From an uncultured Ignavibacteriales bacterium (GTDB lineage: Bacteria > Zixibacteria > MSB-5A5 > GN15 > JAAZOE01): DNA of 64,000 nucleotides. Shown here in pieces: positions 2,801 through 40,800 of the stretch. Positions within the stretch are counted from its first letter, which is position 1. Each line of letters starts with the position of its first letter. The position numbers were made by a program, and so were the translations under genes. Under the pieces are notes generated by a model. The model was not told where the DNA came from, did no database searches, and saw only the letters and a program-made list of their open reading frames with translations. Location: positions 2,745 through 66,744 of the forward strand of contig CAZSYD010000001.1 in NCBI GenBank assembly GCA_964611355.1, given 5' to 3'.

Positions 2801-3460
2801 ATGTCGCTTAAGGCCTCATTCCTGCCGTTGGCTTTGGTATTATTTTTGGCGGTTCAAACTGCCTTTGCGTCTTCAGCCAGCCGTCCTGAATTGGAAATTG
2901 AGGGCTCGATTGCTATTGAAAGCAACTTCGAAGAGAGTATGGAATTTGATATTGTCTTCAAATTCATGCTCAAACCTGAAGGGCATTCGTATGATATAAT
3001 ACAACAGCAGCTTGAATCTCTGCGTAGTAAGGCGAAAAGCGGAGATTCTGAAGCAATCGCGACTCTAAATAGATTTAACCAAAAAATTGATACTGCCTAT
3101 TTATTGCCGGACAGCAATATTGAATTCCTATCGCCAGCAAGCTGGAGTGGAAAACTCGAACCGAACAAAGAAAACAGGTTGACAGTAAAAGCTCGATTGC
3201 TATACAAAATACAGACTCGGGTTGAGGGGGTGATCGGGTCCGCTTGCGAGAGGGGCATTGAAGACAATACTATACAATGCACATTTAATAGCTATTTCGC
3301 CTCAGACGTATTGTTTGAAGAAATATTGCCGGGTAAGAAAACGCCGAACGCAGACAGGTTACGTATTGACAGTTCCGGCAAGGCGATTACAATCAGGCAA
3401 GTGCATAAACCGGGCCTTTTTATAACTGATAGTACAAAAACGATAGAAAAAGTCGACTGA
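2801..3460 (+). CDS. Hypothetical secreted protein (orphan)
   Basis: Strong SD (aggaggg) 4 nt before the ATG. Signal-peptide-like N-terminus (LPLALVLFLAVQTAFASSA). I recognise no family motif. G+C is somewhat lower than in neighbours. Confidence 0.55.
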   Translation: MSLKASFLPLALVLFLAVQTAFASSASRPELEIEGSIAIESNFEESMEFDIVFKFMLKPEGHSYDIIQQQLESLRSKAKSGDSEAIATLNRFNQKIDTAYLLPDSNIEFLSPASWSGKLEPNKENRLTVKARLLYKIQTRVEGVIGSACERGIEDNTIQCTFNSYFASDVLFEEILPGKKTPNADRLRIDSSGKAITIRQVHKPGLFITDSTKTIEKVD

Positions 3461-3559
3461 CGGGTTACACTGCTTCGCGGTGGGTAAAATAATACCGCCA
3501 CATGGTCGAATGCCCTCGTCAAATCATTCGTAACGTGCCTGTTAATGATAATTTATAGA

Positions 3560-4081
3560 TTATAGAAACTTCGAGAAATCTATCTCGATTTTTCTTTTCG
3601 GCGCGGGCATTTGGATCATCTGCACCCCGGCCAGCTTGAACATCCGCCGCGCGGCAATAGATTTTTCATCTTCAGGATATTTGTCGCTAATATAGATAAC
3701 CGCCTTGATGCCGGCCTGGATAATCATCTTAGCGCATTCGTTGCAGGGAAATAGATTGACATACATTCGACAGTTGTTCATCCGGCCGAAATCGCTGTTT
3801 AGGATCGCGTTCATCTCGGCATGGCAGACATAGGGATACTTGGTATCAAGATATTCGCCCTGCCGCGCCCATGGCAGTTCATCGTCGCTGCAACCGGCCG
3901 GAAAGCCGTTGTAACCGATGCCGACGATCCGGTTTTCCATGTTGACGATACAGGCTCCGACCTGGCTGTTGGGATCCTTGCTGCGGAACGAGGAAAGAAC
4001 CGCCAGCGCCATGAAATACTCATCCCAGTTAAGGAAATCTTCTCTTTTCGTCGTTTTTTCTTCTGATATCATGCTTTCCAT
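3560..4081 (-). CDS. Deoxycytidylate (dCMP) deaminase, ComEB-like
   Basis: Zinc-deaminase motifs HAEMNAI and PCNECAKMI. 173 aa, the typical size. Confidence 0.88.
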
Positions 4082-5271: not shown

Positions 5272-7248
5272 ATGGCAAGAACCTCTCGGAAAGAAACGGA
5301 CCGTACGAATAAAGGGGGCAAGATCGTGCTGAGTGATGTTTATGTGACGACGCCAATATATTACGTCAACGACAAGCCTCATATCGGGCATGCTTATACA
5401 TCCATCGCGGCCGATTTCCTGGCCCGGTTCTATCGGCTGGCCGGAAGGGAGTCGTTTTTCTTGACCGGAACCGACGAGCACGGCACTAAAATCGCCGAAA
5501 CTGCCGCAATTGCCGCAAAGTCGCCGCAGGAGTTATGCGACGAAATGGCGGCGCATTTCAAAAAAACCTGGGAAGCGCTCGGTCTGGCTCCCGATTATTT
5601 CGTTCGCACCACCGATGATCGGCATGTCGAGGCGGTCCGAAAACTGCTTGCTGTTCTTAAAGAGGCCAAAACCCCAGACGGTCAGGATGTAATTTACGAA
5701 GGCGTTTACGAAGGCCTCTACTGCACGGGTTGTGAAAAGTTTCTAACCGAAACCGACATGGAGAACGGCAACTGCATCTACCACAAGACGCCGCCGGTGC
5801 CGCTTAAGGAAAGGAACTACTTCTTCCGGCTGTCGTCTTATATACCGATTCTAAAGGACAAGGTTGAGAAAAACGAGTTAATGATTTTGCCCAAAGAGCG
5901 ACGTAAAGAGGTTCTGGGGCTTCTAAATCTCGGTCTGCCCGATTTTTCGATTTCGCGCGAATCGGTCAAATGGGGTATCCCTCTCCCGTTCGACCCTTCC
6001 CAGATTGCTTATGTCTGGGTGGACGCTCTCCCGAATTATATTTCGGGCGTTGGTTACGGCGATAATGGGAAACAGTTCGACAAATGGTGGAATTCGGCCA
6101 CGGTTGTGCACCTGATGGCCAAGGATATCCTGAAGTTCCACACTATCTACTGGCCGGCGATGTTAATGGCGGCCGGCGTGAAAACGCCGGATCGAATTTT
6201 CCTGCACGGATTTTTCACCGTCAACGGAGAAAAAATGGGCAAATCGGCAGGGAATATGATCGACCCCAACAAAATGGTCGAAATCTACGGCTCCGATGCT
6301 ACCCGGTACCTGCTCCTGAATCAATATCCGTTCGGCATGGACGGCGACATCAAGGAAAGCGAGTTCGCCGTCCGGTACAACGCCGATCTGGCCAACGATT
6401 TGGGCAACCTGGTTTCGCGCGTGGCCAAGATGATTATCCGGTACTTTGACGGTGTGTTACCGGAGCCGAAAGCGGGCATCCCCGGGCAGAAGGAAATGAT
6501 GGAAATCGCCGAAGATCTCCCGGATAGCGTTTACGATTATGTCAGGAAATTCCGGATAACCGATGCCATCGGCGGCGCTTTGAGCCTTGTGCGGGAGACC
6601 AATCGCTTTGTTGAAAATGCCGCTCCCTGGAAACTGGCCGGGGAAGGCAAATTCGATACGGTAGGCGGGATTTTATATACGGCGAGCGAATTGATACGGA
6701 TTGTAACAGTTCTTCTCTTTCCGATAATGCCCGGCAAAATGCGGGAGATCAGGTCGATTTTCAACCTCGATGATTCCAGCCTGACGCTTGATTCCGCCCG
6801 GACGTGGTTTGATCTGCCCCATGGCAGCAAGATCAATTTCAAGGGATCGGTCTTTCCCCGGCTTGATCCGGGTAAAATACCCGCGCTGGTTGAACCGCCC
6901 GAGACAAAAGAAAACGAAAAGACCAATCTTATCACGATTGATGATTTCAGCAAGCTTGACGTGAGAGTTGCTATAGTTGAATCAGCTGATAAAGTAGAAA
7001 AGGCCGATCGCCTGCTGAAACTTCAAATCGATATCGGAGATGAGAAACGGCAGATTGTTGCCGGTATAGCGCAGCAATACCAGCCGGATGAAATCGTCGG
7101 GAAAAGGATTGTCGTCGTCGTTAACCTTGAGCCGGTCAAAATCAGGGGGATAGAATCGCGCGGCATGCTTCTGGCGGCCCAAAAAGACGGCGTACTGAAA
7201 CTGGTTACAATCGACGGCGATATCGCTCCCGGAGCTACGATCAGCTAA
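5272..7248 (+). CDS. metG: Methionine--tRNA ligase with C-terminal tRNA-binding domain
   Basis: HIGH-type motif (KPHIGHAYT) and KMSKS-type motif (KMGKS). C-terminal EMAP/Trbp111-like segment (DVRVAIVESADKVEKADRLLKLQIDIG). An in-frame GTG at 5326 with an upstream ggggg is an alternative start. Confidence 0.92.
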   Translation: MARTSRKETDRTNKGGKIVLSDVYVTTPIYYVNDKPHIGHAYTSIAADFLARFYRLAGRESFFLTGTDEHGTKIAETAAIAAKSPQELCDEMAAHFKKTWEALGLAPDYFVRTTDDRHVEAVRKLLAVLKEAKTPDGQDVIYEGVYEGLYCTGCEKFLTETDMENGNCIYHKTPPVPLKERNYFFRLSSYIPILKDKVEKNELMILPKERRKEVLGLLNLGLPDFSISRESVKWGIPLPFDPSQIAYVWVDALPNYISGVGYGDNGKQFDKWWNSATVVHLMAKDILKFHTIYWPAMLMAAGVKTPDRIFLHGFFTVNGEKMGKSAGNMIDPNKMVEIYGSDATRYLLLNQYPFGMDGDIKESEFAVRYNADLANDLGNLVSRVAKMIIRYFDGVLPEPKAGIPGQKEMMEIAEDLPDSVYDYVRKFRITDAIGGALSLVRETNRFVENAAPWKLAGEGKFDTVGGILYTASELIRIVTVLLFPIMPGKMREIRSIFNLDDSSLTLDSARTWFDLPHGSKINFKGSVFPRLDPGKIPALVEPPETKENEKTNLITIDDFSKLDVRVAIVESADKVEKADRLLKLQIDIGDEKRQIVAGIAQQYQPDEIVGKRIVVVVNLEPVKIRGIESRGMLLAAQKDGVLKLVTIDGDIAPGATIS

Positions 7249-7264
7249 GTCTTCCCGTCCGGTT

Positions 7265-8035
7265 ATGATAGATACCCACTGCCATATCGACTTCCGGGAT
7301 TTTGACCAAGACCGGGAAGAGGTAATCGTCCAGGCCGCCGAGTACGGCGTTGACAGGTTGATTAATATCGGCGTCGATATCCAGTCGTGCCGCCGCTCGT
7401 TTACCCTGGCGGATTCGTACGAGAATATCTATTGCACGGTCGGGATACATCCTCACGACAGTAAAACGCTGACTAATGATTTTCTGGTCGAGATGGGAAA
7501 AATGGCCGAGCACCCGAAAGTTGTCGGGATCGGCGAGATCGGGTTGGATTATTATCGTGACCTGTCGCCGCGCGATATACAAAAGAAAGCGTTTATCCGA
7601 CAGCTTGACCTGGCGGTTGATCTGAAATTACCGGTCGTGATTCATGTTCGCGAGGCGATGGAGGACGCCGTCCCGATTATTGAGAATTACGCCGGCAAGC
7701 TTCGCGGCGTCTTTCATTGTTTTCCCGGGACGATCGAGCAGGCTCGCCAGGTGGCGGCAATGGGATTTTATATTTCGGTTAATGGGATGCTGACCTACAA
7801 AAACTCAAAAATGGCGACCGTGGCGCAGCAAGCTGAGTTGGAGACGATCCTGATCGAAACCGATTGTCCCTACCTGACTCCGTCGCCGCATCGCGGCAAG
7901 AGAAACGTTCCGGCGTACGTAAAATATGTCTGCGCCAAACTGGCGGAACTGAGCGGTATGAAATTCTCCGAAATCGACAAGATCACCACTCGCAACGCTG
8001 AAAAGCTGTTTGGCCTGGTGGAGACATTCGGCTGA
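7265..8035 (+). CDS. tatD: TatD-family metal-dependent hydrolase/DNase
   Basis: N-terminal MIDTHCHIDF, and EIGLDYY and ETDCPYL motifs. Confidence 0.88.
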   Translation: MIDTHCHIDFRDFDQDREEVIVQAAEYGVDRLINIGVDIQSCRRSFTLADSYENIYCTVGIHPHDSKTLTNDFLVEMGKMAEHPKVVGIGEIGLDYYRDLSPRDIQKKAFIRQLDLAVDLKLPVVIHVREAMEDAVPIIENYAGKLRGVFHCFPGTIEQARQVAAMGFYISVNGMLTYKNSKMATVAQQAELETILIETDCPYLTPSPHRGKRNVPAYVKYVCAKLAELSGMKFSEIDKITTRNAEKLFGLVETFG

Positions 8036-8826
8036 TGATAAGGGCCAAAAAATCTCTCGGTCAGCATTTCCTTTCCGATCCTCTGATAGTCTCACAAATA
8101 ATGGAGGCCCTGGCACCGCAGGCGGGTGAGACGATACTGGAAATCGGCCCGGGCGAAGGTGTTCTGACCATGCCGCTGGTCAATTCAGGCGCCGAAATCG
8201 TGGCCGTGGAACTTGACCGCCGGCTGGCTCCGAGGTTGGAAAAGCTGTTTGGAACGCATAATAATTTCCGCGTTGTTGAAGCTGATATATTGTCGATTGA
8301 TCCGGGAAGCGTCGGGCTGGAAAATTTCGCCGTGGTGGGTAACCTTCCATATAACATCACCACGCCCGTCATGGACTGGCTATTCAAATATCATGACAAC
8401 ATCGGCCGGGCAGTGCTGATGATGCAGAAGGAAGTGGCCGAAAGGGTAACCTCGCCGCCCGGCAAAAGGGCGCGTTCGACGATATCGGTTCTCACCGAGC
8501 TTTATTACGACGGCGAGTTGTTTTGTCTCGTTCCACCGGAATCATTCAAGCCCCCACCAAAGGTTGACTCGGCCGTGGTGCGGTTTGTGCGCCATAATCG
8601 GAAATATGAAATCAGCAATCTCGCGCGCTTTGAGAAGTTTGTCCGCTTCTGTTTCGCCGGTAAACGGAAAAACCTGCTCAATAACCTTAATTCAGCTTAC
8701 CCGATCAGGCGCGAGCAGTTAAGCGAGACAATCACACAGGTATGCGGATCAAATAAAATCCGTGCAGAACAGATCGAACTGGATAGTTTTATCAGGCTTT
8801 CAGAAGAAATCTTTCGCCGGACGTAA
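8035..8826 (+). CDS. rsmA: 16S rRNA (adenine1518/1519-N6)-dimethyltransferase
   Basis: KSLGQHFL N-terminus, SAM motif ILEIGPGEGVLT, and NLPYNITTP motif. The start overlaps the tatD stop. Confidence 0.92.
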   Translation: MIRAKKSLGQHFLSDPLIVSQIMEALAPQAGETILEIGPGEGVLTMPLVNSGAEIVAVELDRRLAPRLEKLFGTHNNFRVVEADILSIDPGSVGLENFAVVGNLPYNITTPVMDWLFKYHDNIGRAVLMMQKEVAERVTSPPGKRARSTISVLTELYYDGELFCLVPPESFKPPPKVDSAVVRFVRHNRKYEISNLARFEKFVRFCFAGKRKNLLNNLNSAYPIRREQLSETITQVCGSNKIRAEQIELDSFIRLSEEIFRRT

Positions 8827-8863
8827 ACATCTAATGCCCTGTCTCCCGGATTGAGCCAAAGCG

Positions 8864-8874
8864 TCGGGTTTCTC
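8864..8874. repeat. Left copy of exact 11-bp direct repeat TCGGGTTTCTC bracketing the AT-rich cassette
   Basis: The identical 11-mer occurs at 12478-12488 in the same orientation. This copy lies between the rsmA stop (8826) and the radical SAM stop (8890). Confidence 0.5.
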
Positions 8875-8889
8875 ATTCGTTGCGCTTCA

Positions 8890-10113
8890 TTAGTCATTTT
8901 TAAGTATAGGAGACCATGCATCAGGCAACGTTTTCTTGGCCTTCTCGAAGGGCGTGTGGCGCAGTCTATATGACGATTGTTGATCGATTATTTTACGTAC
9001 TAAAGTGGGGCTATAGTAGTTAAGACTTTGTCTCACGCAAATATTCTGTCTTCGTACGTTTCTTCGAAATTGCCGCATTTGAGCATCGGTCCACTTTGGG
9101 TGGATATAATAGTCACTTATCGATTGTTCCTTCATATATGGCAGATAATTGTCAAATGTCTGATTGAGCGGCCTATATCGGCAATCAGAAATTTGAACTT
9201 TCCACTCCCAGCATTTTAACCTCTTCTTTTCCATTTCTTTAAAATCTATATCATAGTTATACAGCATGAACACAAAAATACCTTTAGAACGAAACCCTGC
9301 CTTTACCAGGATATCTATCTGCCTTTTTATTGATCGCCAAGATTTGTAATTGTGATCCCAAGCTATCCTGGGATTCTTAAAGCCAGCCTGCTTTAATAGA
9401 CAAGCTATATATGGTTTTTCAAGGAGTATTCTACCATCAAATCCCGACTGGCTTTCACATATCGGGTGGCCATTCTTTCCTCGAATTTCTATTATTTCTT
9501 CGAGTATGTTTTCAATAAAAGGATTTGCTAAGAGATTGTTATCATAGAATATAATCCTCGATGCGCAAATTTCGGTCCTAATGCTTTTCTTATAGGTAAT
9601 TTCCGGTTCGATGCGCCATACTCCACAAAAGCGGCATTTTCTGAAGCATCCCCTTGAGGTATGTATAATTTGGTAATCTATGGGATGAGGATTTTCAAGA
9701 ATGTTATAGTTTAAATGATGTTTAGAGGCATATTCTTCGGCTTGCTTATGGGTACCGATAAAAACTTCGTCACAGCCAGTGTAGTCTTTGCAGTGTTGTG
9801 GCATTAAAGAAGCATATACTCCACCCACAATGATCTTTGCATGCGGGAAAATTTTTTTGTAATGCTGAACACTCTCCTTGACATGCCGAGACCAATACGT
9901 GAATAATGATGTCACCATCACCAAGTCAGGGTTGTATCTGGTTCCCAATAACCTTCTTTCCTTGTTCCCTCTGGCTAGTTTTGTAATATGGCCAATGCTT
10001 CTATAATAGTCATGGAGTTTAAGCAAACCAATAGGAAGAAAGTTCTTGTGATTCCTACTCTTCAGAGGTACAGGAAAATTGGGTTCAATCAAGAGGATAT
10101 TCATTCTGAGCAC
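8890..10113 (-). CDS. Radical SAM enzyme with B12-binding-like N-terminal domain
   Basis: CX3CX2C motif CFRKCRFC at 9625-9648 (residues C156, C160, C163). N-terminal Rossmann-like pattern ILLIEPNFP...LPIGLLKL...DLVMVTS...IIVGG. The track start is GTG at 10113, directly after the upstream TAA; an ATG at 10104 is an alternative. Confidence 0.8.
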   Translation of the reverse strand: MLRMNILLIEPNFPVPLKSRNHKNFLPIGLLKLHDYYRSIGHITKLARGNKERRLLGTRYNPDLVMVTSLFTYWSRHVKESVQHYKKIFPHAKIIVGGVYASLMPQHCKDYTGCDEVFIGTHKQAEEYASKHHLNYNILENPHPIDYQIIHTSRGCFRKCRFCGVWRIEPEITYKKSIRTEICASRIIFYDNNLLANPFIENILEEIIEIRGKNGHPICESQSGFDGRILLEKPYIACLLKQAGFKNPRIAWDHNYKSWRSIKRQIDILVKAGFRSKGIFVFMLYNYDIDFKEMEKKRLKCWEWKVQISDCRYRPLNQTFDNYLPYMKEQSISDYYIHPKWTDAQMRQFRRNVRRQNICVRQSLNYYSPTLVRKIIDQQSSYRLRHTPFEKAKKTLPDAWSPILKND

Positions 10114-11961
10114 TTATGCATGTGGGTTTAAGTCAGGCGCACCAATGCAGTTGGATAGCCACAAAAGTCCAGCGGTTCCATCAAGAATATCTTGATCATC
10201 ACATTGTCTTATATGGCTTGTAGGGTCTCTTAACACCTTTATTTGGCTGACGCGATACTCAAAATTGCCTTTAATCTTGAAGATTGGCTCAAAGATTTCA
10301 TCCCAATTATTGCCGTAGTTAACTACACTTATTAATTCTCCAAGTCCAAGGAATTCGAATTTTTTCGCGTTCAGATCGATTTGCCTTTCTTCTAAACGCG
10401 GCTTGTTTCTGGTTTCCTTTATCCACATATCGTCCGCATCCTTTTTAGGGCCTCCAGGCACTCCCTGCTTCCACCATTTTTCGCTGCCGTAATGGCTCTT
10501 TAGCTTGTCCAAGATGAATTCGCGCAAGATACCTTCCGCAAGCCGTGCTTTATCCTCTAAGCTGGATATAAGAGGCGGTTTATCAGATGGCACTACATCC
10601 GGCAGCCCACCCATCCGTGCAGGAGAATAATTTGTCACAGATCGTTGAATCACTTGACCTATACGTGCTGCATTTTCACTCTGCGGGCCACGGCCCGTTT
10701 TGCTGCGAATATCTTTTTGCATATTTTCATTGATTTTGAGGTGTTCTATTACCGGCTTTAGAAACGTATCGCGGACTTCTCGCCTGAAATCTTGATTCCT
10801 GCCTGATTTTAGAAGCGATTCTTGTTTCGTATTAATGAAGTAGTTTAATATATCCTGGAATACCATGATAAATACTCCAAACCCATTGTTGCTAATTAAA
10901 ACGCTGCCCTTTCCTTTATTCCAATCTTCTGGCCAAAGCTCTTTTAATATTTCGTAATAGCTACCGATAATCCTCGCCGCATTATCAGGGGTTCTGGTTT
11001 CATCAGACGGATGCTTCAAATACTTCCATTGTGCATATTTCTCTATGGTGGAACAGACTGTTGTAAGACTGAGTTTGGCAGCGCCTATTGCAGGCATACT
11101 CGGTATATCAATATATTCACTCAAAGGCCCGGATTCTCTTAGCCGTTTGGCGGTTTCTGCAATTTGATACTGCAATCTCTGTTTATCGTCTGTGCTGTCG
11201 CGATAAATATCAGAATATAGGTCCCATAGTAAATTCCTAGGGACTGAGGTTTGCTTTTCGTTTATCTCTTTGAAGAGATTTGCCTGTTCCAAGGTTTCAA
11301 GGTTATCAAAAGCCAATACTGGCACCAGCATGTCTTCTTTCTTCGCCTTAGCGGCTCCGTAGAGCCTATGTTGTCCGTCAATTATCCAAGCTGATCCATA
11401 GTATTGAGGTAACGAAATCGTGCCAATTGATACATCATTTTCATAATGTTCCATTTTGTCCCATTTTATTGGCCTTGAAAAGTTAACTATTATGCTATTT
11501 GGGAAATAGCCGTCCTGCTCGTCAATAAAACGTCCTATTTCTTTTAACTTGGCGTTTCTAAGCATCCGTTGATAAACTTGAGATGCGGCTACAATTCCTG
11601 TAAGGTCACGGTGATGAACGTACGCATAGTCCAATAGCTTTTTGGCTGGGATCATGAAAGTGTAAAATGTTTGGCCCCCGATTTTGCCCCTAATGGCCGG
11701 ATACTTTAGCCCCAACTTCTTTTGTCTAATATCCTTAAAGATTACAGAATATAACTGACACTTGGCCGCAGGACCAACCTGCTTGACAAGTTTCTCGATG
11801 TATTCAATTTCGTTGGATGACCACAGAAAAAGCCGCCTGAACCCCCTCTTTCTCACATGATCAACATATTCTTGGTCTACAGGTCTCTTTTCGCGGGAGC
11901 TAATCGCAATTACAATGTTTATTTGCCCACAATTAATTCCATACTTGTCTTCAATTTCCAT
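10114..11961 (-). CDS. DGQHR-domain (DndB/ParB-Srx-like) protein fused to a C-terminal Swt1-type HEPN domain
   Basis: Literal DGQHR motif at 11365-11379 (WIIDGQHRLYG). The C-terminal roughly 145 aa read LREFILDKLKSHYGSEKWWKQGVP...VLRDPTSHIRQ, with Rx4H at 10213-10230. Confidence 0.8.
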   Translation of the reverse strand: MEIEDKYGINCGQINIVIAISSREKRPVDQEYVDHVRKRGFRRLFLWSSNEIEYIEKLVKQVGPAAKCQLYSVIFKDIRQKKLGLKYPAIRGKIGGQTFYTFMIPAKKLLDYAYVHHRDLTGIVAASQVYQRMLRNAKLKEIGRFIDEQDGYFPNSIIVNFSRPIKWDKMEHYENDVSIGTISLPQYYGSAWIIDGQHRLYGAAKAKKEDMLVPVLAFDNLETLEQANLFKEINEKQTSVPRNLLWDLYSDIYRDSTDDKQRLQYQIAETAKRLRESGPLSEYIDIPSMPAIGAAKLSLTTVCSTIEKYAQWKYLKHPSDETRTPDNAARIIGSYYEILKELWPEDWNKGKGSVLISNNGFGVFIMVFQDILNYFINTKQESLLKSGRNQDFRREVRDTFLKPVIEHLKINENMQKDIRSKTGRGPQSENAARIGQVIQRSVTNYSPARMGGLPDVVPSDKPPLISSLEDKARLAEGILREFILDKLKSHYGSEKWWKQGVPGGPKKDADDMWIKETRNKPRLEERQIDLNAKKFEFLGLGELISVVNYGNNWDEIFEPIFKIKGNFEYRVSQIKVLRDPTSHIRQCDDQDILDGTAGLLWLSNCIGAPDLNPHA

Positions 11962-11988
11962 TTTAATTTACAAACGCTTTCAAAAATA

Positions 11989-12390
11989 TTACTCCAACTT
12001 GTTTTTATCATTAATCGGTCCGTCCAATTTGGAACTTTGGCAATCAATAATAAAGATATTATCGCCTTCTCTGGCAAAAACGTCAATCTGCTTTGAATAA
12101 GTATTAAACCCTAATTTGAATCGTTTACTTTCCTTGTTCATACAAGGAAATCCAAGCTTGTAGAAAATCATCCAAACACGATCTTCAAATAACTCAGCTT
12201 CTGTCTTTTCCTTCCTTATTTTGATTCTAGTCTTAAGCCTAGGCCCTTTTTTCTCTTCCCAACCTTTTTCCATGTGGTTTGTTAGTTGATCTTGCGGCAC
12301 GGATTTCTCTCGGTACAGCTTAATCCTCTTGGAAGCGGCTTTTCTCAGCTCCTTATTATTAGTACAGAGTTCACCTTCGATTCCACGCAT
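11989..12390 (-). CDS. Small basic protein with restriction-endonuclease-like (PD-(D/E)xK-type) strand pattern
   Basis: Strong SD (aaggaggg) before the ATG. FEDRVWMIFYKLGF...QIDVFAREGDNIFIIDCQSSK resembles the helix, D-strand and (D/E/Q)xK-strand of Mrr/NucS-like folds. The expected ExK position reads DCQ. Confidence 0.5.
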   Translation of the reverse strand: MRGIEGELCTNNKELRKAASKRIKLYREKSVPQDQLTNHMEKGWEEKKGPRLKTRIKIRKEKTEAELFEDRVWMIFYKLGFPCMNKESKRFKLGFNTYSKQIDVFAREGDNIFIIDCQSSKLDGPINDKNKLE

Positions 12391-12427
12391 TAAGTCCCTC
12401 CTTTTGAAAAACTAACAATACTATAGG

Positions 12428-12456
12428 ATTATAATTCTACTCCTTTTCAGTAGCAA
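12428..12456 (-). promoter_or_regulatory. Sigma70-type promoter of the cassette operon
   Basis: On the minus strand: TTGCTA (12456-12451), a 17-nt spacer, then a perfect TATAAT (12433-12428). It lies about 38 nt upstream of the ATG at 12390. Confidence 0.5.
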
Positions 12457-12477
12457 GCCAAATTTGTAATCTATATT

Positions 12478-12488
12478 TCGGGTTTCTC
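12478..12488. repeat. Right copy of exact 11-bp direct repeat TCGGGTTTCTC
   Basis: Identical to 8864-8874. It lies between the cassette promoter and the nfu stop (12579). Confidence 0.5.
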
Positions 12489-12578
12489 TCCGCCTGTGGC
12501 GGATCAGAACGCCGACCTGCATTATAAACCCCATATATGTTCGTAGAGACGGTTTGCGAACCGCCCGTACGATTGATA

Positions 12579-13184
12579 TTACTCGCCCGGGGCCTGGAAG
12601 TACGGGTTCTGTCCGGAGGCGTGATCGGTAACATCTACGATTTCGGTTATCTCCGGTGCCCGCGAACGAAGAATCTGTTCGATACCGTATTTCAGGGTGT
12701 GGGCCGCCGAAGCGCAGCCCTGGCAGCCGCCCCTCATCGTCAGATAAACGGTCGTTTCCTGGAGATCAACCAGTTCGACACTGCCGCCGTGAGCGGCGAT
12801 GCCGGGATTTATTTCCTCGTCGAATACCTTCCGTATCTTTTCGCGCAGTTTTTCGTCGATGGCCGGTTTTTTATTTTTGATTTCAGAAGATATCAAATTG
12901 CCGCCCGCCGATATTTTTTCGCGCATTACCGCGCCTATTTTTTTGCCGATATCCTGCCACCGGTCGTCGGTTGATTTCATCACGGTGACGATATTACCGG
13001 CAACCATTACCTTGCTGACACCGGCAACTTCAAACAGAGCCTCCAGAAGCGGCGAACCTTCGGCCATCTCCCGGCTGGTGCATTTGACCACCCCATCGTA
13101 GAGTTCGTAATCGGTTCGAAACCGGCAGACGTCCGGATCTATTTGCAGTTCGGCGGTAATATTTATGGTACCGGCGTCCTTCAT
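12579..13184 (-). CDS. Nfu/NifU-family Fe-S cluster assembly protein
   Basis: C-terminal NifU-type motif GGSVELVDL...TMRGGCQGCASAAHTLKYGIEQIL, and an N-terminal Nfu_N-like segment (LFEVAGVSKVMVAGNIVTVMK). Confidence 0.85.
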   Translation of the reverse strand: MKDAGTINITAELQIDPDVCRFRTDYELYDGVVKCTSREMAEGSPLLEALFEVAGVSKVMVAGNIVTVMKSTDDRWQDIGKKIGAVMREKISAGGNLISSEIKNKKPAIDEKLREKIRKVFDEEINPGIAAHGGSVELVDLQETTVYLTMRGGCQGCASAAHTLKYGIEQILRSRAPEITEIVDVTDHASGQNPYFQAPGE

Positions 13185-13204: not shown

Positions 13205-14320
13205 CTATACGTTAAACGACTGCCGGGAAGAGTCGCTTTTTTTGCGATTCAATTCCCTGAGCTTGTTAAAATCGTATATGCCGGTGTCGTGTCCGTCGGA
13301 GAAGCTGATTGAGATTGCATAGCGGCCGACCTTCTCAAAGGCTTTGATCTTAATATCGAGCGGCACTTCTCCGGTAGCGGCGCCGGGAACGGGAGCACTA
13401 ATCCGCAAATCGTAGGGAGTATATTCCTCGACGGCGCCGTCCGGCCATTCGATAGTAAGATTTCCTTCTTCCGATAATTTGATATCTTTTGGTTCATCGA
13501 CGCTCAGAACGCCCTCTTTAATTGTGCTCTTGAAACGTTCGGCTATTTCAAGAAAAGCTTTAACCGAAGGCGAATCGGTTTTTTGGACCATCAGCGGCGT
13601 ACCCTCGTCGCTACTGGTCATCAATTCCGGGTCAATCGGAATACTGCCTAAAAAGTTCACGCCAAACTTCTCGGCCATTTTCGCGCCGCCGCCGGTTTTG
13701 AAAATCGCCGTATGCGTCCCGCAATTGGGACAGGTAAAGCCGCTCATATTTTCAATAATGCCCACGATCGGGACATTGACATGATCGAACATCCGGAGAC
13801 CCTTCTCAGCCACCCCCAGCGCCACCTGCTGTGGAGTGGTAACGATAATTGCGCCGCTGAGGTGCGCCTGCTGCGCCAGAGTAATCTGTACGTCGCCCGA
13901 TCCGGGGGGCAGATCGACTATCAAATAATCCAGGTCGCCCCACAGAACATTTCCGAGAAACTGTTGAATCAGTTTGGAAGCCATCGGACCGCGCCATATA
14001 ACCGGTTGTCCTTCCGCCAATAATAACCCGATCGACATAAAAGTCAGGCCGTGCCTTTTAAGCGGTATCAGGTAATCACCCTGCGTCTCGGGTTGCTTCC
14101 CGATTGCGCCCAGCATAGCCGGTTGGCTGGGCCCGTACACGTCGGCGTCCATCAGACCGACCCTGGCGCCCGATTTATTAAGCGCTATCGCGAAATTGGT
14201 TGAAACGGTTGACTTGCCGACGCCGCCCTTGCCGCTGGCGATGGCGATGATGTGTTGAATTCCGGCCAGCCCCGCCGGCTTTTCCTGATGAGCCGGACGA
14301 TTTGCTTTATTTTCTGCCAT
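13205..14320 (-). CDS. apbC: Mrp/ApbC Fe-S cluster carrier ATPase with C-terminal DUF971-like domain
   Basis: P-loop GKGGVGKST and CPNCG cluster-binding motif. The C-terminal LTIEWPDG...ISISFSDGHDTGIYDFNKLREL resembles DUF971. Confidence 0.88.
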   Translation of the reverse strand: MAENKANRPAHQEKPAGLAGIQHIIAIASGKGGVGKSTVSTNFAIALNKSGARVGLMDADVYGPSQPAMLGAIGKQPETQGDYLIPLKRHGLTFMSIGLLLAEGQPVIWRGPMASKLIQQFLGNVLWGDLDYLIVDLPPGSGDVQITLAQQAHLSGAIIVTTPQQVALGVAEKGLRMFDHVNVPIVGIIENMSGFTCPNCGTHTAIFKTGGGAKMAEKFGVNFLGSIPIDPELMTSSDEGTPLMVQKTDSPSVKAFLEIAERFKSTIKEGVLSVDEPKDIKLSEEGNLTIEWPDGAVEEYTPYDLRISAPVPGAATGEVPLDIKIKAFEKVGRYAISISFSDGHDTGIYDFNKLRELNRKKSDSSRQSFNV

Positions 14321-14557
14321 TTAATTTACCTTGCCTTCCGTTATTAGTTTTGTCGCTTACATTGTCTTCAATATTGGGCTAATTACGTAATTTTCGGTCA
14401 AAACGCAAGTAGCTAAAGGCGATATTTATATAATAACAATTTATGTCGGCCAAGGTTCACATAAAGCATTAAAAGCCGCAATACTTTATTTCGCGCACAC
14501 GAAATTGATTTAAAAGTCTGAAATAAAAGTCTAATTATTAAATAACCTGCCTGAGAC

Positions 14558-14589
14558 AAAAAAGGCCGGTTGAGGGGGCCGGCCTTTTT
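14558..14589 (-). terminator. Rho-independent terminator downstream of the GAF-HisKA gene
   Basis: Stem ggccgg (14564-14569) pairs with ccggcc (14579-14584). On the minus strand it is followed by a T-run (plus-strand A-run 14558-14563). Confidence 0.7.
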
Positions 14590-14634
14590 GGATAAGAGGG
14601 GGGATCATATGGAAAGTCTGATAATGGGGAGGCT

Positions 14635-15462
14635 TTACGTCTTGTCGTCTTTCTTTTCTTCGTCTTCCTCTATATCTTCCTTGTCCTTCCGGCTCTTGCC
14701 GGACAGATCAATCATTTTCATCGTTCCGGTATAATCGACCGTGGGGGCATCGGCCGCTTTCATCAAACGCCCGGTTACCTCGCGTATCTGGTTGGCCGAT
14801 TCTTCTATAATTTTTAACCGGGATTGGATATCCTCCGGCAGGTTCTGGTTTTTAAGCATAAGAAGCTGGAGGTTTCCCAGAAGCGCCGTGAGTGGATTGT
14901 TTATTTCGTGATTGATCGCCACCGCCATTTCAACTATGGCGGCTTCGCGTTCGGATTTGACTTTCGATTCCAACTCCTGTGGGCTGATCTCGCCGCCGGC
15001 AATAACCGGCGATGAAGCCAGAGCCAGAACAGCCGCCAGTGCTCGCAGGAAATGGTCATAATCATGGAGCTGAGCCTTATCGGGCTTGATTCCAATTAAA
15101 GCGCCGAATTGCCGCCCGCCGGTTTCAATCGGCAGACTGAAAACCGAGCGAACCGGCTCGCCGCCCAGTTCCATGTAGGCGGCGTTGAGTTTGAAGTCCT
15201 GCCTCAGCATGCTAAGAAGAGAGCTCTCCGTTTCCAGAAGAATCTGTCTGTCATTGTCGTTTCCGGCGGTTACCGATTTGACTTTTATCTCACCCTGTTC
15301 ATCCCATAAAATCAGAGCCCCGGCGGTCAGACCGATATATTCAGCGGCCGAAACCAGGGCTTTCTGAGCCACCAGTTCGACAGATTTTCCGCTGACGGCG
15401 GCTATGGCGGCTTCGGCCAGGGCCCGAAACCTGAGGTCTTCATGACGAGGCGAACTGTTCAT
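14635..15462 (-). CDS. GAF-like sensor plus HisKA dimerisation/phosphoacceptor domain, no catalytic ATPase domain
   Basis: H-box AVAINHEINNPLTALLGNLQLL. The protein ends about 70 aa later in an acidic tail (KDKEDIEEDEEKKDDKT) with no N/G1/G2 boxes. Confidence 0.7.
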   Translation of the reverse strand: MNSSPRHEDLRFRALAEAAIAAVSGKSVELVAQKALVSAAEYIGLTAGALILWDEQGEIKVKSVTAGNDNDRQILLETESSLLSMLRQDFKLNAAYMELGGEPVRSVFSLPIETGGRQFGALIGIKPDKAQLHDYDHFLRALAAVLALASSPVIAGGEISPQELESKVKSEREAAIVEMAVAINHEINNPLTALLGNLQLLMLKNQNLPEDIQSRLKIIEESANQIREVTGRLMKAADAPTVDYTGTMKMIDLSGKSRKDKEDIEEDEEKKDDKT

Positions 15463-15693
15463 ATCATACCGAGTTTGAGCAAACTTTATGCCTTTGACTC
15501 GTATTATTGATCTGTTTGAGCTTTAGGGTCAGCCGTTTGGCGGGTTCCCTCGACGGCTCAACATAATATAGCGGTTTTGGCGATATCTATTCAGTTCATT
15601 TTTTATACAAATATCGTGATAAATCAATCCCAAATAAGGCAAATATGAAGCGAAATTCATATTTATTGCATTTGGTAATATCCGTTTGATACC

Positions 15694-15721
15694 TTGACAG
15701 ACGCTCGGAAATAATTAGATT
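15694..15721 (+). promoter_or_regulatory. Candidate sigma70 promoter for purF
   Basis: TTGACA (15694-15699), a 16-nt spacer, then TAGATT (15716-15721), about 27 nt before the GTG at 15748. Confidence 0.35.
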
Positions 15722-15747
15722 AACGTTTTTTCCGGAAGGGAGACGCC

Positions 15748-17142
15748 GTGGCCGAAGGCATGATCCATGACAACTGCGGGATTTTCGGCATCTTTGGTCC
15801 CAGAAAGGCCGCCGAACTGACCTACTTCGGTCTTTACGCCCTTCAGCATCGTGGCCAGGAATCGGCCGGAATCGTTACCGCCAACAACAACCGGTTGAAT
15901 CTCTACAAGGGAATGGGCCAGGTCTCTGAGGTTTTTGCCGACAAATCAATCTTCGACAAGCTCAAAGGGAAAATCGCCATCGGCCATAACCGATACAGCA
16001 CCACCGGTGCCAACTCCATCACCAACATTCAGCCGTTTGTCATCACCAATCGCGACAGAATGCTGGCCGTGGCGCATAACGGCAACCTGACCAATTCCAT
16101 AATGTTAAAGAAAAAACTGGAAGCCGGCGGCTCCATTTTTCAAACCACTTCAGATTCCGAGATAGTTCTTCATCTGGTGGCCAGGTCGAAAGCGGAAGAT
16201 AACTTCAGCAAGGTTTGCGACGCCGTTAAAAAGTTAAAAGGAGCATACTGCTACCTGTTTTGCGGTGAGGACAGCATCATCGCCGCCCGCGATCCATGGG
16301 GGTTCCGTCCTCTGGTTTTGGGGCACCTCAACGGCCACTGGGTAGTTGCCTCCGAAACCTGCGCCTTCGATATAATCGGAGCAAGGTACAAGCGGGATAT
16401 TGAGCCGGGCGAGGTATTGGAAATATCCGCCGACGGCCTGCGTTCCGAATTCCCTAACCGCAAACATAAACACGCCTTCTGCATTTTTGAGTATATCTAT
16501 TTTTCCCGGCCCGATTCGATTGTTTTCGGAGAAAACGTCGACAAGGTGCGCCGCCGTCTGGGACAGCTTTTGGCCCGGGAACATCCGGCTGACGCCGATA
16601 TCGTCATGAGTATTCCCGATTCGGCCAACACCGCCGCCCTCGGCTTCTCGGAAGAATCCGGGATCAAGTTCGAGATCGGCTTTATCCGCAACCATTATGT
16701 CGGTCGCTCGTTTATCGATCCGGAACAGAGAATTCGCGACCTTGACGTCAAAGTCAAGTTCAATCCTGTCAAGGGAGTCATCAAAGGCAAGCGGGTTGTC
16801 CTGGTGGACGATTCCATTGTGCGCGGCACAACGTCAAAAAAGCTGGTTCAGTTAATCCGCAATGCCGGCGCCAAAGAGATTCATTTTCGGGTTTCGGCCC
16901 CGCCGATTATTTCCCCGTGTTATTTCGGTATCGACATGCCGACCAAAGAGGAATTTATTGCCAACCAGAAAACCATTGAACAGATTCGCCGCTTTATCGG
17001 CGTGGAATCATTGGGGTATTTGTCGGTCAAGGGAATGCTTTCGATGCCGTCTTTGCCGGATGATGATTTTTGCGTCGGCTGCTTCACTGGCAAATATCCG
17101 CTCAAGATACAGGCTTTAAGCAACAAGATGCGGTTGGGGTAG
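15748..17142 (+). CDS. purF: Amidophosphoribosyltransferase
   Basis: Ntn-type CGIFGIFG near the N-terminus, PRTase motif VVLVDDSIVRGTT, and C-terminal Cys ligands (CVGCFTGKYP). GTG start with a ggag SD; an ATG at 15760 is an alternative. Confidence 0.93.
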   Translation: MAEGMIHDNCGIFGIFGPRKAAELTYFGLYALQHRGQESAGIVTANNNRLNLYKGMGQVSEVFADKSIFDKLKGKIAIGHNRYSTTGANSITNIQPFVITNRDRMLAVAHNGNLTNSIMLKKKLEAGGSIFQTTSDSEIVLHLVARSKAEDNFSKVCDAVKKLKGAYCYLFCGEDSIIAARDPWGFRPLVLGHLNGHWVVASETCAFDIIGARYKRDIEPGEVLEISADGLRSEFPNRKHKHAFCIFEYIYFSRPDSIVFGENVDKVRRRLGQLLAREHPADADIVMSIPDSANTAALGFSEESGIKFEIGFIRNHYVGRSFIDPEQRIRDLDVKVKFNPVKGVIKGKRVVLVDDSIVRGTTSKKLVQLIRNAGAKEIHFRVSAPPIISPCYFGIDMPTKEEFIANQKTIEQIRRFIGVESLGYLSVKGMLSMPSLPDDDFCVGCFTGKYPLKIQALSNKMRLG

Positions 17143-17241
17143 GTTTGCTCGAATCGGTGAGTTTATTTTTAATTATGCCGCAGTTTTAGCAGGTTGGTGT
17201 TCCGAATGGACCGAAGCGAAATGAGAAACCCGACACCGAAT

Positions 17242-37825: not shown

Positions 37826-40800
37826 TCAGGATTTTATCTTTGCCGACATTAATTCAGCCATCTTTTCCACCTGGTATTTGGCCTTATCGGCGGCGTTAAG
37901 AATTTTACGGGCTGCCTTAAGAACACCGGACACGCTTTTATCACTGATTCTGCCGGCGGCATTAAGCTGCATCAGGCTTATCACCGGCAACGAATTAACC
38001 AGATGCTCAAGTCTTTCTTTGTTTATCCAGAACGCCTCATTAAACCGGTTGAGTTGCAGATATTCGCTCGCGAGAGGATCTTCCAGTACCATTTCCACGA
38101 AATTAGCGATACCCGACGCAGGCCCGACAATAAGTAAATCTTCAAACTTGGTCAGCATTGCCACCAGCAAGGCATCTATGCGAGCTTGCGCCTTATCACC
38201 GAGGAAACCGGCAAACAATTCAGCTATTGTTTTTCGCAACAGCCAGTCTTCCAAGTGGATATAACTCAGCTTATCCTGAGGCGCGACATCATCGGGCGAA
38301 GACAACTCTCCCAACCGGTGAACGGCGGCCCACGCCACGGCGACGTGCCGTCCCGGCTCCTTTACAGGTCGATCAAATTGAGCCAAAACCTTACTGGCGA
38401 TCTTGTCACTTATCGGAAACTTCTTGATTTTTTCTTCAAGCGGAACGGCGCTTATCTCTTTTGTTATATTCTGAAGGATTTCTTCATAGTCTTCGCCGGA
38501 ACCTGCAAAATCTTTAACTGCGGCAAGAAAATCCCGCGTCGCCTGAATGAACCTGGAAGACGCTTTTTTATCGTTCTTTGCAAAACCGCGAAGCAGGTCG
38601 GCATTCAATAATTCTCGGAAGGGAATAAGAATCGGGTCGAGCTTCATTTCGCGCGCGGCTTCCTCGATACTGTGTACGCCCCGGCCGTTCAGACGGCGCG
38701 ACAGTTCACTCCACGACCCGTCGCTATCATGGATTTCCCGGAAGTCCAGAAAGGCGTGATATTGATAAGCATACAGCTCCGCGTAAAGACCTTTCTCGGC
38801 TATCCGGCGGCCGGGGCGAATATATTCCAACCCCGTTTTGTGGTCGCGAAAAGAATACAGGTACCCATCCCCGGTATTAAGCGCCAGCGCTTCGGCCAGT
38901 GTCCTGCGAACCATAACCGCATTGTCGGCGCCGCCGACATTTATCTGTGTAGAAGTGTGAATCCGGCCGCGGGTGGTATTGTAAGCGTTGTTATAAAGGA
39001 TAACGGCCCGCTCGTCGCCGGCCCGGTTGGAATAGGCGAAAACATTTTCATCGACCCACCCTTCCGGACTATTAAAATCATAAAAAGCAAAATTCTCGGC
39101 GCCGCTGAAAAGTCGGCGTCGTCGCATGAGCGGAAAAATCTCAACCTCATGACGTCGCACCATTTCTTCGTCAACAGGCTCATCCCAGTAAGCCCGCCGG
39201 TATTCCATGCCGTATTTCTCGGTGAGACCTTCAATTTGCCCGTGACCGAACATCGGCAAACCCGGCATGGTAACCATAAGGGCCGCCACGCCGAAATACT
39301 TGTCCCCTTTGCCGAATTGTTCCACGGCGGTGCGTTCATCGGGGTTGTTCATGAAATTGACGAATCGCTTAATAACCTCGGGACTGAATTCCAGAACGTT
39401 CTTGACCGTGGTTCGATAGTCGGCGTTGTCCTCCATTTTAAGCATATTCATGAAAGCGCTGTTGTAAACGCGGTGCATGCCGAGCGTACGGACGAAGTAA
39501 CCCTCCATTAACCAGAAGGCTTCGGCTATAAGAAGAGTGTCGGGCACTTCCGCAGCGACACGATCGACCACCTCTCTCCAGAATTCACTTGGAAACACGG
39601 CGCTGAACTCCGCCCCGGACATGCCCCGTTCGGCGCGCGAAGGAACAGCCCCGCCGTCGCCCTGCCTTGGAAACCAGAGACGCTGATAATGCCGTTTGGC
39701 CAGCGTCATGGCGGCGTCAAAACGGATAATCGGGAACTTGCGGGCCACATGAAGAATCATCCGAATGACCGCTTCACGCACTTCCTGTATGGTGAAGTCA
39801 AGCTGGGCGGTATCGTTCCAGGGCATACTTGTGCCGTCGTTACCGTGGTAGATGTATTTCACGTCGCCGGTCCATTTGTCGATCCGCTTGAACACCACGG
39901 CCGCATCGCCGTGACTCCAGTAGCCGTCCTCAATCTGGATAGTAACGCGCTGATCCCACGACAGGTCCTGGCCCGTGTATTGATAGCACGGAAAGGGCGG
40001 ATAATCGAGCCGGATGAACCAGTCCGGATGCTCGATTACCCATTTGGAATAGATACCCATATGATTAGGCACCATATCACTGGCCAGCCGAATGCCGCGC
40101 CGCAGGGCCCGGTCGTGAAGATTTCGATACGCCTCTTCACCGCCCAAATCCTCGGCGATGGTATAATCGTAGATCGAATAGGCTGAAGCGGAGGCTTCGG
40201 GGTTACCCATAATCTGTTTGATTTTCTGCGAGGCTTGTGAGCGCTCCCACAGCCCGATCAGCCACAAACCGGTAAACCCCCACCGGGCCAGCCGGTCCAG
40301 TTCTCCATCGGGAATGTCGCTTAGATGTTTAATATGCCGCCGGTATCGTTTCGACAATTGGTCAAGCCAGACGTAAACGCTCTTGGCCAGTATAACAACG
40401 TTCGACATCCAGTCGGCGTCCTGGCTGAACATGGCCGGTTCGGGATACCCCAGGTCGCCATAAAGATCACGGCCAAACTGCAGCACCAGATTCGGCCCGG
40501 GGCCCAAACCCCGCAGCCGTTGTTCTTCTTTCAGAATATCCAGAGCCAAAAGGAGACGTTCGAGCAGTTCGGGCGGCAGGAAATCCGCCCAGCGCTGCCT
40601 GATATAATCGAGCTGACCCTGCATGGAATCGGGCGAGGCCGTCATCGGGGCGCGCAAACACCTAAACAGCGTCATCCCGACCTGCTTTAAGGCAGGTTGC
40701 TTTTCAAAATACTGCTCCAGCCCCTCTATGTAGGATTGATACGGGGAGCGTTTTTTCAAATCGACATCGTCAAAAAGCTCTCTGAAAGGTCGAAACGACG

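Follow-up and report, generated by a model that had tools for sequence, protein, structure and literature searches.

The DNA analysed here is a stretch of 64,000 nucleotides (nt) from an uncultured Ignavibacteriales bacterium (contig CAZSYD010000001.1, positions 2,745 to 66,744), referred to below as the window. It carries a horizontally acquired module in which a split gene for a large DGQHR-HEPN protein is followed directly by a gene for a B12-binding-type radical S-adenosylmethionine (SAM) protein. We give a little better than even chances to the reading that this is a restriction-modification-like defence module, in which the radical SAM protein would mark self DNA, the DGQHR protein would sense the DNA, and nuclease-like and HEPN domains would act. 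The ancestral large protein had ~750 amino acids (aa) and consisted of a domain resembling PD-(D/E)xK nucleases, a DGQHR domain of the DndB/ParB type and, at its C-terminus, a HEPN-like domain of the Swt1 type that carries an R[DN]xxxH motif. A role in defence fits, because the gene lies on an acquired island and its family is paired with DNA-modification genes. The parts of the longer piece of the split gene are:

10114-11961, minus strand: DGQHR-HEPN gene of 615 aa, an open reading frame (ORF) encoding the C-terminal half of a nuclease-like domain, the DGQHR domain, a helical middle and the HEPN-like domain.
11722-11961, minus strand: residues 1-80 of the 615-aa ORF, predicted to complete the restriction-endonuclease-like fold (AlphaFold (AF2) model; gapless alignment to homologues).
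10840-11709, minus strand: DGQHR (DndB/ParB-like) domain, residues ~85-374 (TIGR03187 at residues 89-371, PADLOC DpdB at 85-379, Pfam DndB at 87-349).
11365-11379, minus strand: DGQHR motif, residues 195-199, encoded by GACGGACAACATAGG.
10144-10569, minus strand: HEPN_Swt1-like all-helical domain, residues ~465-606 (profile matches, R578-x4-H583, predicted structure).
10213-10230, minus strand: RDPTSH (the Rx4H motif), residues 578-583, encoded by AGAGACCCTACAAGCCAT.

The original prediction, made from the letters alone, had placed a literal DGQHR signature and an Rx4H motif in this 615-aa ORF, and both were found at these positions. RDPTSH is the sole R-x4-H of the protein. In an alignment of 44 sequences reaching down to 30% identity, D195-R199, R578, H583, E476, W496, N552 and W601 were among the invariant residues, and the window copy retained 38 of the 38 family-invariant residues that fall in the 615-aa part. 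The DGQHR domain is the most conserved part of the protein. Since DGQHR and Rx4H are invariant across the homologues, the motifs are not due to chance.

Profile searches assigned the DGQHR domain to the DndB-like type that had been proposed. The protein belongs to the TIGR03187 DGQHR domain family of NCBIfam (154.3 bits against a cut-off of 58.85) and to Pfam DndB, PF14072 (58.7 bits against 29.1), the latter being matched by 39 of the 44 family members. The best match in the defence library PADLOC was DpdB (E 1.6e-27). Identity with either namesake was considered and rejected. For DndB, the TIGR03233 equivalog gave 34.9 bits against a cut-off of 328, and rsmA, nifU and the radical SAM gene lie where dndACDE would be expected; for DpdB, the NF041060 equivalog gave 88.7 bits against 300, and the island has no dpdA. 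With both equivalog cut-offs missed widely, the protein is a DGQHR-domain protein that is neither DndB nor DpdB. The AF2 model of the 615-aa protein had a mean predicted local distance difference test score (pLDDT) of 85.9, and its top PDB match in Foldseek was the ParB N-terminal domain 5k5d_C (probability 0.99, E 0.017). The whole-chain template-modelling (TM) scores of this match, 0.20 and 0.41, are low because the query consists of several domains. For the expected ParB-like fold the structure search gave this candidate match, and for the HEPN fold it gave none (see below).

The Swt1-type HEPN assignment of the C-terminus had profile support above the cut-off in the family consensus, although not in the window protein taken alone. 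The latter scored 20.4 bits against HEPN_Swt1 (PF18731), under the cut-off of 27.5, whereas 28 of 44 homologues matched the profile at E<=0.01 and the majority consensus of the family C-terminal domain exceeded the cut-off (32.9 bits, E 8e-8). The PADLOC candidate PDC-M34B also matched the C-terminal ~140 residues (E 4e-6). The motif at this site is R-[DNSGH]-x3-H, and neither its R nor its H varies among 72 sequences of the C-terminal domain down to ~21% identity; the conserved Rx4-6H with a polar residue after R that typifies the HEPN superfamily is therefore present among the homologues, as had been anticipated. When modelled alone, the C-terminal domain was entirely helical with a pLDDT of 94.4. 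It is predicted to act as an RNase. The occurrence of a DGQHR domain and a Swt1-type HEPN-like domain in one polypeptide proved to be conserved across hundreds of protein clusters. A coupling of DNA-state sensing to RNA cleavage, as first suggested, would be a putative function of this protein. In total, 937 family clusters were counted at 50% identity (E<=1e-30), nearly all of 750-800 aa and matched end to end.

The description of the product as one 615-aa polypeptide stands for the window genome only. A search of 5.8 billion proteins retrieved ~800 relatives, mostly of ~750 aa, and the ~135 extra N-terminal residues of these homologues correspond to a separate in-frame ORF upstream in the window:

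11989-12390, minus strand: ORF of 133 aa encoding the N-terminal half of the restriction-endonuclease-like domain (FED...QIDV...IIDCQ), 47-52% identical to homologue residues 1-133.
11962-11991, minus strand: in-frame spacer with three stops (TAA at 11989-11991, TGA at 11980-11982, TAA at 11968-11970), which splits the ancestral gene.

The two ORFs share a reading frame and are separated by 27 nt. Read-through translation of both gave a gapless alignment to six full-length homologues, in which the three stops occupy the positions of E, G and D. For stops placed at random, a cluster of three within 8 of 758 codons has a probability of 2.2e-4. Identity to the full-length homologues was 47-52% for the 133-aa piece and 55-59% for the remainder. 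A strong Shine-Dalgarno sequence lies 5' of the 133-aa ORF. An alternative genetic code or stop read-through was rejected, since both TAA and TGA occur among the three stops and the window's other genes translate as usual under table 11. Two short close homologues were considered as evidence of a conserved split and were likewise rejected: P0002 is cut by an insertion sequence and the start of P0044 was miscalled. Disruption recurs among close homologues of the large gene. In L008-L010 (positions 1-120) a transposase end lies directly upstream of a truncated homologue, eight contigs (L209/L210 ends) break right after a 518-aa truncated copy, and a third copy, that of L016 in a Nitrospira metagenome-assembled genome, is broken.

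In the family, the N-terminal region matched the NERD, Hjc, Card1_endonuc, Mrr_cat and HSDR_N_2 profiles, all below their cut-offs (NERD 19.2 against 22.1; Card1_endonuc 22.5 against 26.4). Its family motif is FED...QxD...(E/D/Q)C(K/R); among 43 sequences the position before C is E in 32, Q in five, D in three and F in three, and the position after it is K in 25, R in 12 and other in six. The window has D...DCQ instead of the usual ECK, a variant found also in the intact full-length proteins P0027 and P0060. In the AF2 model, residues 1-74 of the 615-aa protein form helix 2-11, strand 16-19, helix 27-38, strand 44-47 and helix 49-74, and in L044 the Card1_endonuc match spans residues 84-217, ~70 residues beyond the ECK motif. 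The split thus cuts through the nuclease-like domain and not between domains. Given the split domain and the DCQ motif, the DNase arm of the window copy is probably weakened or in need of two-chain reassembly.

The second gene of the module follows at once:

8890-10113, minus strand: B12-binding-type radical SAM gene, with possible starts at GTG 10113 (407 aa) and, the likelier of the two, ATG 10104 (404 aa).

The 615-aa gene and the radical SAM gene are translationally coupled, with stop codon directly against start codon. The radical SAM protein matched Pfam B12-binding (37.4 bits against a cut-off of 32.1) and, weakly, Radical_SAM PF04055 (19.4 bits against 29.5). Its GCFRKCRFC sequence is of the CxxxCxxC type, and the three cysteines were invariant in 29 homologues down to 23% identity. 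Of 2439 homologues found, the top 120 were 54-79% identical; in the top 120 matches the radical SAM protein is better conserved than the DGQHR protein, as expected for a modification as against a restriction component.

To describe the partners of the large gene, a census was taken of 79 species-representative loci encoding the nuclease-like/DGQHR/C-terminal Rx4H architecture. These came from Dehalococcoidia, WOR-3, Verrucomicrobiota, Nitrospirota, Alphaproteobacteria, candidate phyla radiation (CPR) bacteria, DPANN archaea and Methanosarcinales. In 36 of the 79 loci a D12-class Dam methyltransferase gene lies directly downstream, often overlapping, and the two Dam partners tested matched Pfam MethyltransfD12 at ~1e-48. 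A radical SAM gene is near the large gene in 13 loci (directly downstream on the same strand in nine, convergent and adjacent in two, ~1.6 kb away in two). One or the other gene is thus present in 49 of the 79, so that the large gene is regularly linked to a gene for a known or putative DNA-modifying enzyme. DNA methylases were also among the neighbours at the other 30 loci: four of the D12 class, four of MT-A70, at least one of N6_N4 and one of C5. A radical SAM gene was seen downstream of large-protein homologues at 33-64% identity in many genomes and metagenomes. This partner pattern points to the large protein as the restriction component of a restriction-modification-like pair, with the radical SAM protein in the modification slot that Dam, MT-A70, N6_N4 or C5 methyltransferases fill in sister clades. 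Two loci with homologous modules fit defence islands: the module of L008 is adjoined by a HepT/MNT toxin-antitoxin pair (3359-3986), and that of L006 by a C5 DNA methylase and a Vsr endonuclease (13517-16450).

The pairing occurs also in a sequenced isolate, on plasmid pNL1 of N. aromaticivorans (L208, NC_009426.1 118850-125348). This plasmid encodes a DGQHR protein of 769 aa that shares 28% identity with the window protein (E 2e-49). Its gene is convergent with an operon whose products are a 335-aa DGQHR protein, a radical SAM protein of 537 aa and an ATP-binding protein of 507 aa. The 769-aa protein (SARO_RS17535) is probably the Saro_3948 of the earlier literature. The pNL1 radical SAM protein, SARO_RS17525, is 25% identical to that of the window (E 1e-15). 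In both pNL1 and L203 a short DGQHR/DndB-like protein that has no HEPN domain is encoded directly before the radical SAM gene. In L038 the long radical SAM and GHKL genes are arranged as in pNL1.

The module of the window lies on a low-GC (guanine-cytosine) island:

8827-12543, no strand: acquired island of 3.7 kb with three ORFs, missing in a sister genome; its GC is 0.37-0.44 and that of the flanks 0.50-0.54.
8035-8826, plus strand: rsmA, left flank of the island.
12579-13184, minus strand: nifU-like gene, right flank of the island.
12428-12456, minus strand: promoter-like site TTGCTA-17-TATAAT 5' of the 133-aa ORF, a consensus match only; sites of this kind are no more frequent in the region than chance predicts.
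8864-8874, minus strand: 11-mer GAGAAACCCGA near the left island end, identical to the copy at 12478-12488.
12478-12488, minus strand: 11-mer GAGAAACCCGA near the right island end, identical to the copy at 8864-8874.

The sister genome, L211, has a MetG 92% identical to that of the window, and the flanks are 92-93% identical at the nt level. MetG also places the host near candidate division Zixibacteria (FCB group), to which it probably belongs, with 71-72% identity to proteins of named Zixibacteria metagenome-assembled genomes. Homology between the two stops at 8826 and restarts at 12544. In L211 only 33 nt separate rsmA from nifU, which defines the island as window positions 8827-12543, and the module is horizontally acquired. 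TTTGGCT follows 3-15 nt after each of both GAGAAACCCGA copies; the repeat alone is statistically insecure, but it may be a trace of how the island was inserted. A third copy of the 11-mer occurs at 17223. Between the convergent rsmA and nifU genes there is a palindromic hairpin, GGTTTGCGAACC at 12545-12562 of the window and GCGGTTCGCGAACCGC at ~9470-9487 of L211, and the insertion point of the island lies precisely between this hairpin and the stop codon of rsmA. No integrase, tRNA gene, Rfam match or long terminal repeat was found at the island, and across the whole window (1-64000) there were neither tRNA genes nor Rfam matches at gathering thresholds. Large ORFs elsewhere in the window include one of 1161 aa (37826-41311).

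The distribution of the radical SAM family was followed in 79 metagenome loci with copies 44-63% identical to that of the window. Almost none of these has a DGQHR-HEPN gene; instead, the radical SAM gene stands at the end of operons of other types:

PbeA-PbeC and a small DndE-like protein: 18 loci.
GHKL ATPase-containing operons: 11 loci.
SNF2 helicase and a 340-aa protein: 9 loci.
ParB_N protein and a 501-aa protein: 9 loci.
DrmA-DrmB-DrmC-DrmE (DISARM-like): 6 loci.
Short DndB-like protein: 1 locus.
Unclassified: 14 loci; too little upstream sequence: 11 loci.

The named classes cover 54 of the 68 loci with enough upstream sequence. Examples of such operons are L092/L093 at 7001-8257 (Koleobacter methoxysyntrophicus CP059066.1), L148, L164, L133, L190, L170 and L095. 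The 340-aa, 354-aa, 139-aa and 501-aa partners in these operons gave no Pfam or PADLOC match. A DNA-modifying enzyme is normally part of DISARM and CxC-ABC/Pbe systems or required by them (PMC10853773). That the radical SAM gene ends defence operons which depend on modification suggests that it is a module exchanged among such systems, and independently supports a modification role for its product. The operons come mostly from metagenome-assembled genomes of uncultured sediment and groundwater bacteria and archaea. In IMG/VR (L096-L125), 32 viral-collection contigs encode radical SAM relatives, which may be genuine phage genes or host genes within prophage calls; two of them are close (54% and 47%), and most are distant forms of 540-640 aa flanked by SNF2 and GHKL.

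A wider proposal is that the B12-binding-type radical SAM family is a DNA self-marking enzyme that takes the place of DNA methyltransferases in five or more kinds of defence system, among them the DGQHR-HEPN module and DISARM-like, Pbe-like, SNF2/GHKL and ParB_N operons. We put this forward tentatively, at somewhat less than even probability. If true, it would mean a radical-chemistry modification of DNA of a kind not yet described in host genomes.

For the module itself the following sequence of events is envisaged. The radical SAM enzyme would put a radical-chemistry mark on host DNA, cobalamin-type C-methylation being one guess of several. By analogy with DpdB, SspE and GmrSD/BrxU, the DGQHR domain would bind DNA, hydrolyse nucleoside triphosphates and read the state of the DNA. 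The large protein would scan the DNA and, on meeting unmarked DNA, either the DNA would be cut, or the HEPN RNase would arrest the cell, or both. Such a combination of direct restriction with shutdown at the RNA level would follow the rationale given for HEPN-linked restriction enzymes (PMC3710099). The enzymatic activities, DNA as the radical SAM target and the direction of self/non-self discrimination are here predicted from sequence and gene context.

A number of observations weigh against this restriction-modification reading. Despite its high model confidence, the C-terminal domain gave no Foldseek match with E<1 in PDB or BFVD, which leaves the HEPN fold unconfirmed though not refuted, and the DGQHR-HEPN family profile had no match among PDB sequences at E<=1. 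The grounds for the HEPN assignment are therefore profile similarity together with a conserved motif of catalytic type. The radical SAM family profile likewise had no relative in PDB at E<=1, and the protein no NCBIfam equivalog match. About 20 of the 79 family loci have no modification gene nearby. The remaining points concern the window locus, which, being split, may be inactive or becoming so. No clear Shine-Dalgarno sequence precedes the 615-aa ORF, and interruptions are common in its nearest relatives: P0002 is cut by an insertion sequence, P0067 ends at a contig break and L016 is broken. Together with three in-frame stops inside a folded domain and DCQ in place of ECK, these points speak for a rival view, namely that nonsense mutations have inactivated the large gene, the usual fate of toxic restriction components, and that the locus is a decaying remnant in which at most the radical SAM protein works. 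We regard this as unlikely, but it deserves to be taken seriously. Decay would not readily account for the confinement of the stops to 8 of 758 codons (P ~2e-4), with both flanking ORFs open and free of frameshifts, nor for a DGQHR-HEPN part that keeps every family-invariant residue. The 133-aa ORF is also about as conserved as the rest, and intact proteins share its DCQ.

The other rivals differ in what the two proteins of the module would do. DpdB is an ATPase required for the insertion of 7-deazaguanine by DpdA, and DndB regulates phosphorothioation. The DGQHR protein could similarly be mainly a helper or regulator that loads the radical SAM protein on DNA or restrains it, the nuclease-type domains being secondary; the DpdB match in the defence library, the strong conservation of the DGQHR domain and the short proteins of pNL1 and L203 would agree with this. 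It is nevertheless improbable, since the large protein also pairs with ordinary Dam-type methylases, which require no helper, the family has kept its HEPN Rx4H site and, for the most part, its nuclease motif, and the radical SAM family mostly occurs without any DGQHR protein. SspE and GmrSD/BrxU, in which a DGQHR NTPase is joined to a nuclease, are modification-dependent, and this raises the prospect that the window protein works in the same SspE or Type IV manner, being activated by the radical SAM mark or attacking modified foreign DNA, and sparing DNA without a mark. BrxU and SspE did appear among the Foldseek PDB matches of the full model, but weakly and non-significantly (E>1), and the tight pairing with a self-modifier that changes in type (Dam, MT-A70, C5, radical SAM) is the classical signature of self-protection. 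We rate this a shade lower than the helper role. Least probable of all is that the radical SAM protein acts off DNA, by making a small antiviral molecule in the manner of viperin, by modifying RNA, or as an antitoxin to a HEPN toxin. Radical SAM enzymes of defence do include prokaryotic viperins and Ophion OpnA (bioRxiv 10.1101/2025.09.30.679545), and HEPN toxins often occur with antitoxins (PMC3710099); yet the radical SAM protein of the window has a class B-type N-terminal B12-binding domain, unlike viperin, and its family holds the methyltransferase slot in DISARM-like, Pbe-like and DGQHR-HEPN loci.

If the radical SAM protein does mark DNA, immunity of the restriction-modification type would extend beyond SAM methyltransferases, phosphorothioation and 7-deazaguanine, and a new epigenetic mark would await identification. 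Methylome calling in metagenomes would be affected, as would the biology of phages and their hosts in anoxic habitats, and new DNA-modifying tools might follow. The large protein would place one DNA sensor in charge of effectors of both DNase and RNase type, which makes the logic proposed for HEPN-linked restriction systems, of restricting first and then shutting down the cell, directly testable. The pNL1 and Koleobacter methoxysyntrophicus loci are from sequenced isolates and may make such tests practical.

With regard to known systems, a Swt1-like HEPN domain fused to ParB ('Saro_3948') was catalogued by Anantharaman et al. 2013 (PMC3710099, Table 1), and fusions of DGQHR/ParB to PD-(D/E)xK, HNH and HEPN nucleases were noted by Makarova et al. 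2013 (PMC3632139). The finding as first worded, a fusion of the two domains, is therefore not new: the Saro_3948-type fusion has the same pair, a ParB-superfamily DGQHR domain and a Swt1-type HEPN domain with Rx4H. Both 2013 papers list the fusion only, without the N-terminal nuclease-like domain and without methylase or radical SAM partners, and radical SAM is not mentioned in the HEPN paper (PMC3710099). In the literature, subscription-only papers aside, no description was found of the three-domain family as a restriction partner of Dam, MT-A70 or other methylases, of a DGQHR-HEPN protein paired with a radical SAM gene, or of this radical SAM family in DISARM-like, Pbe-like and other operons. 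Ophion was considered in this comparison and is unrelated to the pairing.

SspE, GmrSD and BrxU (a DUF262 DGQHR NTPase with a DUF1524 HNH domain) likewise join a sensor/NTPase and a nuclease effector in one polypeptide and are tied to the modification status of DNA. The window protein differs in that its DGQHR domain is of the DndB/DpdB type (GmrSD_N reached only 16.1 bits against a cut-off of 33.2), its effectors are PD-(D/E)xK-like and HEPN instead of HNH, and a modification gene of its own is paired with it. DndB and DpdB have the DGQHR domain family in common with it, whereas the window protein is about twice as long, has two extra nuclease-type domains and lacks an adjacent dndACDE or dpdA. 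DISARM and Pbe share the putative modification module, since radical SAM homologues 44-63% identical end DrmA-B-C-E and PbeA-PbeC operons, but there are no Drm or Pbe genes in the window. Canonical DISARM uses the DrmMI or DrmMII methyltransferase, and Pbe relies on Dnd phosphorothioation or a methylase (PMC10853773). The radical SAM protein has the layout of class B (cobalamin-dependent) radical SAM methylases, an N-terminal B12-binding-type domain followed by a CxxxCxxC core; unlike these it has no NCBIfam equivalog and no PDB relative at E<=1, and cobalamin use and methyl transfer are putative. Thus, the large protein is a further member of a catalogued fusion, and the whole module appears to be a novel restriction-modification-like variant, with its functions predicted from the sequences of both partners.

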